NCBI GenBank assembly: GCA_964534625.1 | Contig: CAZHRF010000032.1 | Span: forward strand, 1-37,622 | Length of the DNA stretch: 37,622 bases | Direction: 5' to 3' | DNA from: an uncultured archaeon | GTDB lineage: Archaea > Asgardarchaeota > Heimdallarchaeia > Heimdallarchaeales > Heimdallarchaeaceae | Part shown: one piece after another, positions 2,696 to 33,127 of the stretch | How positions within the stretch are numbered: the stretch's first letter is position 1 | Layout: the number at the start of each line of letters is the position of its first letter | Made by a program: the position numbers and the translations under genes | The notes under the pieces: generated by a model | The model's database searches: none | Seen by the model: the letters and a program-made list of their open reading frames with translations, nothing else | Told to the model about the DNA's origin: nothing

Positions 2696-4300
2696 ATGAG
2701 TTCGCTCCTAAATTACTTGCGATCGATAGATACTGATACTTTTGTCTCAAAAATACAGAAAAAAGAATATTTAACTCAATTGATTGATAAATTTGATCTT
2801 GACAATACAAAAACCATAGACGGATTTGCAGAGTTTATGCTTATTGAGACAAGAAAAACAATCAATGCAGGAAATAGGACAGATGGAACAAAAATCCTAA
2901 AATATGTGAAAGCACTATTTCCGTTCATTTCGGAAGAAATGCATGTTTCATTTTATTTGGCTTTAGCAGATTCTTTTCTTGTAGCAAATGATTATACAGG
3001 TGCGTTTAAAGCTGCATCAAAGGCCAAGATTATTGCTAATAATGCACAAAATCCCAAACTAGAGATTAAAGCCTTAAATCTATTATTTATTATTCAGAGG
3101 ACATTAGGGAAGGATAAAGCAATTAATTATCTCCTTAAATCTAAAAAACTCTCAATTGAAGTTGAAGACCACGAAAATATTGTTTTCTGCGATGTGAACA
3201 TCGGTTTAATCCATCTCTTTAATAAGAACAATAAAAAGGCTGCAGAATATGTTAAACGGGTAATAAACCATCTGACTGTTTATCCTTATCCTGAAGAGAA
3301 AATTAACATGCCTGCTGATTTCTATATCCAAGTATTTACTGAAAATCCTGGATATATTACCGCTCCAATATATAAAGAGACAGTAAGAAATGGTGTAGAA
3401 GTGGTTTTACGTGCAGTAAAACATATTGAAAATATACAACAAGCTTCAAGAAGAATATCATTACTCATTTCAACATTAAAATTATCAGATGAAATTCTAA
3501 CCCGAACATTGAAAATTATAGAAAGAGGATTGGAAGAAATATCCAAAGAAAAACGTTCGAGTTATTACATGGCTATTGCTAGTGGATTGGGTGATTATAA
3601 AGACTATAAGCTTGCATTAGTCTTTCTCGAAAAAGCTATTAATCACTTAGAGCATGTTAAAGATGAAGAAACACATAGGAAAGTAAGAAAAAATTATGGA
3701 TATACCATATCAAGAGTTCTTAATGCTACAATGGCATATGATTTACAGTCAAGCTCAAATCTAATCAATCAATCACGAACCATTTCAATAGAAACGGAAG
3801 AAAATAGTTTAATAGGAAAAAGAGCAACAAAAATATCTTTTAGGAACTCTCCCTACGATTCAGATTCAGTCTATGGTATTAGTAGGTCTCACATTGTGAA
3901 TCAAATAATACCCAGCATTAAAGAAGTATATGAATGGAAACCAATTATAAATAAACTTAGAATTTCACATAGCAAAAAAGATCCCATTAGTGAGGTAGAA
4001 CTTATTGTCATAAATGCAAAAGGACAGGACGATGATATCCGCTCTTTACTTTTGATAGGTACGGTTTTGGATGAAAAAGGATTGAGAAAAAAAAGAAGGG
4101 TATTTACTGGATTTCAGATTGTAGGACACATTGTACCAAATCAAATATTGCAAGAAAATCATTTTGAAGAATATGATATTAAATTCATTTATGATTTAAT
4201 TTATGCTCCACAAAAATTCAAAGAAATAGAACTATTAACTAATAGTAAAAACTTGGATCTCAACTTTGAATCTATTGGTAATGAGATAAAAAAAGGTTAA
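2696..4300 (+). CDS. Hypothetical protein with N-terminal TPR-like helical repeats
   Basis: 534-aa ORF; TPR-like patterns (YLALADSFLVANDYTGA, NIGLIHLFNKNNKKAAEY, ALVFLEKAINH). Confidence 0.6.
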   Translation: MSSLLNYLRSIDTDTFVSKIQKKEYLTQLIDKFDLDNTKTIDGFAEFMLIETRKTINAGNRTDGTKILKYVKALFPFISEEMHVSFYLALADSFLVANDYTGAFKAASKAKIIANNAQNPKLEIKALNLLFIIQRTLGKDKAINYLLKSKKLSIEVEDHENIVFCDVNIGLIHLFNKNNKKAAEYVKRVINHLTVYPYPEEKINMPADFYIQVFTENPGYITAPIYKETVRNGVEVVLRAVKHIENIQQASRRISLLISTLKLSDEILTRTLKIIERGLEEISKEKRSSYYMAIASGLGDYKDYKLALVFLEKAINHLEHVKDEETHRKVRKNYGYTISRVLNATMAYDLQSSSNLINQSRTISIETEENSLIGKRATKISFRNSPYDSDSVYGISRSHIVNQIIPSIKEVYEWKPIINKLRISHSKKDPISEVELIVINAKGQDDDIRSLLLIGTVLDEKGLRKKRRVFTGFQIVGHIVPNQILQENHFEEYDIKFIYDLIYAPQKFKEIELLTNSKNLDLNFESIGNEIKKG

Positions 4301-4340: not shown

Positions 4341-5159
4341 TTATTTCCTAAAATATTTAAGCAAGACTTCCATTTGTCTCCGCTTTTTTTCATCATATTC
4401 TTTTTGTTTCATAAATTGTATGCCTTTTTTATAAAATTCTTCTGCTCTCTTCTTTTCTCCTAAATAGAGATGAGACAAGACTAATTGAATGAGTGCTTGA
4501 AAAATTTGTTCATCTTTTTCAAACTTTTCAAAATAGGACAAAGATCTCTGAATATTCATGTTTGCTTCTTCATATAATCCTTGTGATAGCTGGAATTCAC
4601 CTAAATTATATTGTGCTTCAGCTGTTTTTTCTAAGTTTTTGGTTCTTGAAAAGCATTTTATGGCATTATTATAAGCGTTTTCTACTTGTTTATTTGTAAC
4701 AAATGAAGAGTGTAAATTGGCATAATAGGTATGACCCATTTCAAGATATGCGTCACCTAAAAAAATATCTTCTTTGGTTTCTTTTAGAATGCTGATGGCT
4801 TTTTCTAAATACTCAATACTTGCAGAAAAATTACCTTGACTTCTGTACAGTTTACCTAATAATATAGCTGAATAACCAGCTTTAATTGGATTAAAATTTT
4901 CTTTAAATAAATAAAAGGCTTCTAAGTAACTTTTTGATGCCTTGATAGCAGAGTTCAATTTAACATACACATTACCTAAAAGAAGAGCACATTCCGCAGT
5001 ATTTTCTTTATCCCCCAGTTTACTATATAATTCTTCAGCATAAAACAATGAGGAACTAGCTGATTCAAAGTCTTCAGCTTCAATTTCATTTTTTCCTTTG
5101 TCCAGAAATCGGAGAGCACTTTCTTCATGTTCTAACATGTCAAGGAAAGTAAGTTTCAA
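4341..5159 (-). CDS. Tetratricopeptide repeat protein (SNAP/MalT-type TPR solenoid)
   Basis: Repeated LG.xY...G....A..Y...A units; true start may be the ATG of MLEHEE a few codons downstream. Confidence 0.85.
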   Translation of the reverse strand: MKLTFLDMLEHEESALRFLDKGKNEIEAEDFESASSSLFYAEELYSKLGDKENTAECALLLGNVYVKLNSAIKASKSYLEAFYLFKENFNPIKAGYSAILLGKLYRSQGNFSASIEYLEKAISILKETKEDIFLGDAYLEMGHTYYANLHSSFVTNKQVENAYNNAIKCFSRTKNLEKTAEAQYNLGEFQLSQGLYEEANMNIQRSLSYFEKFEKDEQIFQALIQLVLSHLYLGEKKRAEEFYKKGIQFMKQKEYDEKKRRQMEVLLKYFRK

Positions 5160-5311: not shown

Positions 5312-5376
5312 GGATAAGACAAATGGAATTATATACAACAGAAAAAGATTTATTTTTATTCGATTGAATAAGATAA

Positions 5377-5445
5377 TGTAATAGATGATGACGGTTTTAC
5401 CGTATGAGCTAACGCTATGATTAGTATTGGCACACTGATATTACA
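5377..5445 (+). ncRNA. C/D-box 2'-O-methylation guide sRNA (16S helix 18 guides)
   Basis: 7-bp terminal stem TGTAATA/TATTACA; box C ATGATGA 5385-5391; D' ATGA 5404-5407; C' ATGATTA 5417-5423; D CTGA 5435-5438; guides of 11-12 nt. Confidence 0.85.
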
Positions 5446-5506: not shown

Positions 5507-6865
5507 TTATATTTTTAACCCCACTTTTTTATTTCTCCGTTTCCAATACCACCTATAGAGTATGCAAGGTTTATTACCAATTGGGCTATCTTCAACTGCT
5601 TTTATCCATTCTTTAGTTTTTTTTCTGATTAATTCAAATGCCTCTTTTGTTAATTTATCGTTTTCTTCTTCGTCTTCCCTTTTTTGATCTTTGGCCAATA
5701 TATTTTCTACTCTTTCAGAAAAAGTTTTTTCCATCTGCTCTTTTTCGTTTGAATAAATTGCTAATCTCTTTTTATAGTCTTTTAAAACTAATCTATGTAG
5801 TTTTTCGTGCAACCACCATAATGTTTCTGGATTATAGTTCTGCTCTGCTTTCTCTCCTGTATTGAGTTTTTGAATACCGGGTAAAATAATAGGTAGATAG
5901 ACCCCTGTACAAGGAGCTGAAGTACCGGTTATCCAGTGTACAGCTAACTTGTCTTCTTTCAAATGTGAAACCATTGATGAAACTGATTGGCTAGGTGTTA
6001 AAAATGAGGCCGCATGCATACACACATTCTTCATAGAACCCTTTGAAGGTGTCCAAACACGCTCTTTTTCTTTTTTTAATCTATGCATGCGTAAAACCTT
6101 TTTAATCGTTTCAGGAGTAATGGATCCCTTTTTTTGGTTGAGTGCAGTTTCTGTAAATGCTTTCCTTTTTTTGCCTTTAGCTCCTATTTGATTAATGCTG
6201 AATTTGGCAATAAAACAATTAGCAAAATGAAAGTCTTCTTCTGAATTACAATACCCCTCTTCAATAGCATGCTGAATCAGTTCTGGATGAATGCGATTAT
6301 AATTTTTACCAATTGTCAATGTATTGGAAATAGTTCTAATGTCCTTAACTTTTTCTGTGATCCAGTATTTACCAGCTGTTTCAAGAACCCACGCCGTACT
6401 TGTATCTGCAATTATAAACGAATTGTGGTAGTTCATTTTGCGATTGTAAAAACCGCATATACCACCCTGTCCATGCGTATCCAATAATCTAATTATAATA
6501 TCAAGTGCTTCATCAGCTGTTTTGGATCTCTCTAAAGCCAATCTAAGCATGTCCATACCTAATAGTCCTTCTTTCTTTAATGGCTCTTTAGTGAAAACAG
6601 CTTCATTACCAATAGTAACACCAAATTCATTAGAGCCCATCTCTGCCCCAAACATCCAAAAAGGCTGACTAAGTAAAACTTCATATGTTTCTTCCACTTG
6701 TGGAACAGATATGTATGTACATTTTACTTTAGTTCCTTTTTGATGTTTTTTTCGTGGAACATGTACAATATTTTGAGCTTCATTAGGTTCTCTATCACTA
6801 TTCTTTCCAAATAGGACACTATTATCTTTTGTTGCTTTCCCTAAAACTACTATTGTATCACACAT
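5507..6865 (-). CDS. Peptidase C69 family dipeptidase / secernin-like Ntn hydrolase
   Basis: N-terminal nucleophile MCDT, FGKNSDREPNEAQ, WMFGAEMGSNEFGVTIGNEAV, LGMDMLRLALER. Confidence 0.92.
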   Translation of the reverse strand: MCDTIVVLGKATKDNSVLFGKNSDREPNEAQNIVHVPRKKHQKGTKVKCTYISVPQVEETYEVLLSQPFWMFGAEMGSNEFGVTIGNEAVFTKEPLKKEGLLGMDMLRLALERSKTADEALDIIIRLLDTHGQGGICGFYNRKMNYHNSFIIADTSTAWVLETAGKYWITEKVKDIRTISNTLTIGKNYNRIHPELIQHAIEEGYCNSEEDFHFANCFIAKFSINQIGAKGKKRKAFTETALNQKKGSITPETIKKVLRMHRLKKEKERVWTPSKGSMKNVCMHAASFLTPSQSVSSMVSHLKEDKLAVHWITGTSAPCTGVYLPIILPGIQKLNTGEKAEQNYNPETLWWLHEKLHRLVLKDYKKRLAIYSNEKEQMEKTFSERVENILAKDQKREDEEENDKLTKEAFELIRKKTKEWIKAVEDSPIGNKPCILYRWYWKRRNKKVGLKI

Positions 6866-33044: not shown

Positions 33045-33127
33045 AGGGGAGCCGAGATGATAGGGATTATTCAACCACTGATCGAGGTAAACTATGATGA
33101 TCTCAGCTCACATAGATCGGTTCTCCT
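33045..33127 (+). ncRNA. C/D-box guide sRNA (LSU rRNA guide) with variant terminal K-turn
   Basis: 11-bp terminal stem AGGGGAGCCGA/TCGGTTCTCCT; C-like ATGATA 33057-33062; D' CTGA 33078-33081; C' ATGATGA 33094-33100; D-like TAGA 33113-33116; T-rich tail. Confidence 0.75.

Follow-up and report, generated by a model that had tools for sequence, protein, structure and literature searches.

A box C/D sRNA of Heimdallarchaeia predicted to guide 2'-O-methylation of the decoding-centre uridine U531 of 16S rRNA

Guides for the methylation of this uridine are known from the eukaryotic snoRNA clan CL00057, which contains yeast snR77 (Um578), human SNORD65/HBII-135 (Um627) and the plant RNAs snoR77Y and snoZ7 (Um580). 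The U531 equivalent is listed among the conserved modification sites (PMC3511168), and Hoeppner and Poole found that no single LECA snoRNA family was placeable in the archaeal ancestor (PMC3511168). For Archaea, double guides directed to helix 18 were described in Crenarchaeota, namely Sac sR115, Pca sR28, Tte sR114 and Iho sR21 (Dennis et al. 2015, PMC4644070). They target A535 with the D' guide and G515 with the D guide, which has full length in three of the four RNAs. No prediction for U531 (alignment 508) is contained in the seven-species set of Dennis et al. (PMC4644070), and the 30S tables of P. abyssi list no ribose methylation in helix 18. Papers on C/D sRNAs of Asgard archaea were not found in our literature search.

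The stretch of DNA analysed here (the window, 37,622 nt) had been ascribed to an Asgard-like archaeon in an earlier note made from the letters alone; the host is a member of the Heimdallarchaeaceae. Judged by its sequence and conservation, the segment 5377-5445 is a real and complete intergenic box C/D sRNA. The layout reported earlier, stem, C, guide, D', C', guide and D with a 3-nt K-turn bulge, was read back with every part present. All parts lie on the plus strand. The terminal stem of 7 bp (5377-5383 and 5439-5445) covaries in the orthologues and is followed by the bulge (5384-5386), which shares the first two bases of box C. Box C (5385-5391) has the consensus sequence, and its core is kept in the orthologues. 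Next come the D' guide of 12 nt (5392-5403), box D' AUGA (5404-5407; GA kept in the orthologues), a 2-bp stem-loop closing the K-loop (5408-5415), box C' (5417-5423), the D-side segment of 11 nt (5424-5434) and box D CUGA (5435-5438); boxes C' and D are likewise seen in the orthologues. The first base of box D' (A) and the sixth base of box C' (U) are off-consensus, both still being able to pair. Box order and the spacers of 12 and 11 nt are conserved, and the spacers lie within the 10-12 nt known for archaeal sRNAs. At the sequence level the stem, the bulge, the GA steps and the covariation conform to a K-turn and K-loop. Compensatory changes were counted in seven terminal-stem pairs and in one internal pair (18 orthologues); the K-loop stem consists of this pair, with eight such changes, and one invariant G-C pair. 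The D' guide can also form a weak self-hairpin (-3.7 kcal/mol).

The RNA sits in the gap between the ORFs 4341-5159(-) and 5507-6865(-), which run opposite to it and encode a TPR protein and a C69 peptidase. A TATA-like stretch at 5327-5334 (+), about 45 nt upstream of the stem, is a candidate promoter; the upstream regions of the orthologues are A/T-rich and have no fixed motif. A scan of the window for sigma-70 promoters and terminators gave nothing, a model that is not applicable to archaea. The proteins expected for an archaeal box C/D sRNA are all encoded by the host, with adjacent genes for fibrillarin and Nop5 on contig C27 and the L7Ae gene on C5. Elsewhere in the window, at 33045-33127 (+), another C/D-like RNA was noticed, whose C and D boxes depart from the consensus; its D guide pairs over 10 nt with host 23S position 3014. 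Further C/D candidates of the host, G000:C28:28142(-) and G000:C114:120(-), have 10-bp guides to 23S position 2020 and 16S position 992. The window also encodes an Arf-family small GTPase domain fused to a C-terminal domain of about 150 aa (83-1069, +), upstream of histidyl-tRNA synthetase, and an ORF of 1,233 aa (9148-12849, +).

The host genome (G000) carries one 16S gene (G000:C1:12555-14034) and one 23S gene; the latter (3373 nt) and the 16S of genome G073 (L168, 2225 nt) are over-long, suggesting insertions or introns. For the D' guide a perfect match had been expected if 16S position 534 were A. The host gene does carry A534, and the pairing over 527-537 holds. Position 538, however, is also A and mismatches C5392, so that the duplex is imperfect and covers 11 of the 12 nt. 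Bases 5393-5403 form 10 Watson-Crick (WC) pairs and one G-U pair with the host's own 16S (-17.1 kcal/mol). This is the best site of the guide among the rRNAs and tRNAs of the host, and only 4 of 300 random 12-mers scored as well. The +5 base A5399 faces U531 (host SSU position 471), the target named in the earlier note. An archaeal C/D guide is expected to form at least 9 WC pairs with rRNA and to have a paired +5 base; the D' guide exceeds this number by one. The proposed equivalence of U531 with yeast Um578 was confirmed and extends to human Um627, Arabidopsis Um580 and Dictyostelium Um571. The consensus guides of the eukaryotic Rfam families pair in the same U531 register. Thus the window RNA is predicted to guide 2'-O-methylation of the decoding-centre uridine that is methylated in eukaryotes via snR77/SNORD65.

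Orthologues were detected by model search in 29 of 30 genomes of the host family and in 21 of 22 genomes of family f5, which is of Hodarchaeales type; its member B3_Heim (G053) was placed in Hodarchaeota (PMC8813620). With a broader model, 16/17 and 10/10 genomes were positive, and the remaining Asgard genomes of that search gave only four weak partial matches. This two-lineage distribution is in accord with pattern scans of about 400 Asgard genomes. Outside Heimdallarchaeaceae and the Hodarchaeales type, orthologues were not found in the Asgard genomes searched; we do not call them absent, because incomplete genomes or divergent guides could hide copies. Non-Asgard archaea were covered by one strict pattern and the literature. 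A 10-nt core of the D' guide is invariant in 51 copies, 48 of which keep the U531 register. Three Hodarchaeales copies (L146, L147 and L024 in G049, G071 and G057) carry one additional base ahead of D'; if the box is read in the same way as elsewhere, their target would become G530. The RNA adjoins the C69 peptidase gene in all eight host-family loci with sequence there and has another neighbourhood in f5.

Several copies and matches deserve separate mention. L149 and L150 (Hodarchaeales, G072 and G070) have box C, guide and D' intact and are without C', D arm and box D; they are possibly half-size or rearranged guides. The f5 copies L133-L148 have a longer D'-C' hairpin and, following box D, a conserved extension of about 20 nt whose additional UGA/GA motifs may form a further K-turn-like module. 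A copy labelled 'Thorarchaeota' (L088) reads the same as that of G023 (family f1), which was taken as a labelling difference. As U531 guides of other Asgard classes, five scattered pattern matches were discarded; they did not exceed the control rate and had no box context. The matches in G281 (no clear second half) and G323 (overlapping an ORF on the other strand) were rejected likewise, as were bacterial matches of the GTDB scan, which have no C' boxes and stems. An apparent A535 guide of Lokiarchaeia was dismissed as well, as it lies inside ORFs of about 428 codons, presumably with a peptidase T-like motif.

The conservation also bears on the question whether the boxes are a chance arrangement in A/T-rich intergenic DNA. 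Box-only patterns were about as common in three shuffled genomes (7-9 four-box patterns each) as in the host genome (11), and no Rfam match at the gathering score was obtained in the window. On the other hand, three of the host patterns have a 10-bp rRNA guide and two of these, including the window RNA, also a stem, compared with no guide in the shuffles. The RNA recurs in about 50 genomes from two orders, its stem covaries and its guide stays fixed; this effectively refutes a chance origin, the probability of which we regard as negligible.

The D-side segment was examined in the same way. Bases 5427-5433 pair with 16S 515-521 by 6 WC and one G-U pair, which agrees with the weak 7-bp match described before. 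Taken alone, this pairing is at chance level, as the best score was reached by 157 of 300 random 11-mers. In the host the arm scores higher on 23S position 46 (7 WC and 2 G-U) and 16S position 801 (7 WC) than on 518; no tRNA is among its top ten sites. Across the genomes, the two families show no variation in 16S 514-522, to which every arm is joined by 6-7 contiguous WC pairs; in genus g4 the pairs at 520-521 are lost and one at 514 is gained. When eight genomes were scored jointly, 16S position 516 ranked first in 16S and 23S, every genome contributing 6 or more WC pairs, so that the second arm does point to 514-522, in agreement with the 515-521 match of the earlier note. The joint score was matched by 1 of 200 permutations anywhere and by none of 200 near the D' target; these counts are indicative only and overstate the significance, because the genomes are related. 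Pairing of the arm thus looks selected, whereas a methylation register does not.

An arm that is aimed elsewhere, at 23S position 45-46 or 16S position 801 or 1015, or that has no function, appears improbable. In single genomes such sites score as well as helix 18 or better, as with 23S 46 in the host or with 23S 45 in genus g4 (8 contiguous pairs). The genera g2 and g5, however, keep the arm without the 23S site. Helix 18 alone holds in all eight genomes, and the eukaryotic counterparts aim at the same strand.

It was also considered that the RNA is a true double guide for Um531 and Cm518 in the host, and for Gm517 or Cm519 in other lineages, C518 having been proposed earlier as a possible second target. 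The nominal +5 position of the arm is G517 in 24, C518 in 12 and C519 in 13 orthologues, and the base there is WC-paired in all 49 copies having the arm. The C518 register occurs in four of the five Heimdallarchaeaceae genera, in six Hodarchaeales copies and in the plant snoZ7 consensus. Moreover, less strict criteria apply to double guides with closely spaced sites, and shifts of guide targets through indels are known (PMC4644070). Against this stands the 9-bp rule for a guide duplex (Dennis et al., PMC4644070): a second guide should form at least 9 pairs with a fixed +5, but the arm forms 6-7 and uses three different registers on an invariant target. In some Hodarchaeales copies the positions -1 to -2 are unpaired, and the cross-species table holds no Cm518 equivalent. 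Hence, methylation of C518 is doubtful, since the arm pairs just 6-7 nt and its +5 slides between 517, 518 and 519, and we consider a second methylating guide unlikely.

The two arms flank 522-526 of the host 16S, a stretch containing CCG, which recalls the acetylation guides snR4 and snR45 of yeast. They might loop out this motif for a Nat10/TmcA enzyme. This explanation is very improbable, because no TmcA/Nat10 domain was found in three carriers, all Heimdallarchaeaceae: the host (90% complete) and the two circular Heimdallarchaeum genomes G004 and G007. In addition, the D' guide holds a strict +5 register, and eukaryotes keep the layout in spite of having A523. A TmcA/Nat10-type acetyltransferase domain is present in the Hodarchaeales-type genomes G068 and G073. 

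On balance, the window RNA is likely an independent archaeal box C/D sRNA in which one guide methylates and the other arm acts as a helper. The D-side arm is probably a grip on the neighbouring rRNA strand, as also carried by many eukaryotic counterparts.

The window RNA shares with clan CL00057 the target nucleotide, the use of the D' box and the +5 register, and can be regarded as a functional counterpart and candidate orthologue of the clan. Among 4,227 Rfam models the best one on the window RNA was plant snoZ7/snoR77, with 23.7 bits against a cut-off of 43; the gathering threshold of a member family is thus not reached. In genome-wide searches with the snoZ7 model the locus ranked second in the host (E 0.115) and first in G004, both non-significant, and it was not among the genome-wide matches of the SNORD65 and snR77 models. 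The window RNA differs from the clan in its archaeal size, its short C-to-guide spacing and a guide that follows the archaeal 532-537 sequence.

For the D-side arm of the eukaryotic clan no description was found in the literature searched. In the snoZ7 consensus a D-side element pairs with 517-522 in the C518 register; its five bases at positions -8 to -4 are identical to those in the arms of genera g2, g3 and g5. In the vertebrate consensus no arm could be made out convincingly, and the D guide of Neurospora CD24 serves for U5 snRNA. For SNORD65, an 8-bp match of its D segment was discarded as an artefact of the archaeal stand-in target. Metagenomes were scanned for eukaryote-type U531 guides with the D side unspecified and box D chosen blind to the target. 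Several of the RNAs obtained are confirmed clan members inside snoRNA clusters; others were assigned to eukaryotes by their 18S-type guide alone. The arm target, given as a short motif, was the universal segment 512-526, with which 27 of 36 guides (10 of 18 non-redundant) form 5 or more WC pairs, compared with 2.8 and 1.16 expected from shuffles, and none of 1429 other 16S windows reached this count. The arm registers scatter over 514, 515, 518, 521 and 525. The contigs L297, L305, L271 and L290 carry eukaryote-type U531 snoRNAs below the Rfam cut-off with long D-side arms in G514/G515 register; L297, with a 12-bp arm and its +5 at G515, looks like a true double guide for Um531 and Gm515.

The crenarchaeal RNAs resemble the window RNA in having four boxes and in addressing both strands of helix 18, the 3' strand with the D' guide and the 5' strand with the D guide. 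They differ in their targets, A535 and G515, where the window RNA addresses U531 and 517-519. Another C/D-like non-coding RNA (L239, G005:C66:12343; L242, G006:C39:9429) has the crenarchaeal A535 register and mismatches the A534 present in these archaea; neither a homologue in G000 nor a good target was found. The two-strand layout is common to Crenarchaeota, Heimdallarchaeia and eukaryotes, and U531 to the last two alone. Descent with a register shift is therefore a simple explanation: an older helix-18 double guide (A535 and G515, as in Crenarchaeota) would have moved to U531 in the ancestor of Heimdallarchaeia, and eukaryotes would have inherited U531 guide and D-side arm. We put forward tentatively, at somewhat below even chances, that the LECA snR77/SNORD65/snoR77 clan has its archaeal orthologue in this family. 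Window RNA and clan have the two antisense elements in common, and the range is restricted to Heimdallarchaeia. However, one conserved target dictates both arms, and archaeal double guides often have target sites next to each other, so that convergence is an alternative. The shared D-side arm raises the case for common descent and does not prove it. If the descent holds, an individual snoRNA family would be traced across the archaea-eukaryote boundary, with presence in Hodarchaeales, which have been proposed as sister of eukaryotes. The family, a predicted guide for a pan-eukaryotic decoding-centre methylation that in the Asgard genomes searched turned up only in two lineages of Heimdallarchaeia, offers a concrete test case for the inheritance of individual snoRNAs.

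The mechanism itself would be ordinary box C/D chemistry. The RNA would be transcribed from its own promoter and assembled with L7Ae, Nop5 and fibrillarin. The D' guide pairs with 527-537 in the pre-16S, and by the +5 rule fibrillarin would methylate U531 beside the decoding base G530. The D-side arm, itself probably methylating little or nothing, would grip 514-522 by 6-7 bp in competition with the pairs 521-528 and 522-527 of the mature 530 loop. Such a grip may hold the loop open for the D' guide, similar to the 'extra base-pairing' of eukaryotic snoRNAs, by which methylation in yeast is raised as much as five-fold (van Nues et al. 2011, PMC3116282). The conserved pairing with a sliding register therefore fits an accessory grip of this kind. 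Function was demonstrated for the yeast and human elements, whereas we infer it for the arm of the window RNA. Those elements usually lie apart from a D box, and the main text of that study does not mention snR77 (PMC3116282). Like the arm described here, they are short (4-11 bp) conserved complements beside the methylation site, often located in the second guide region.
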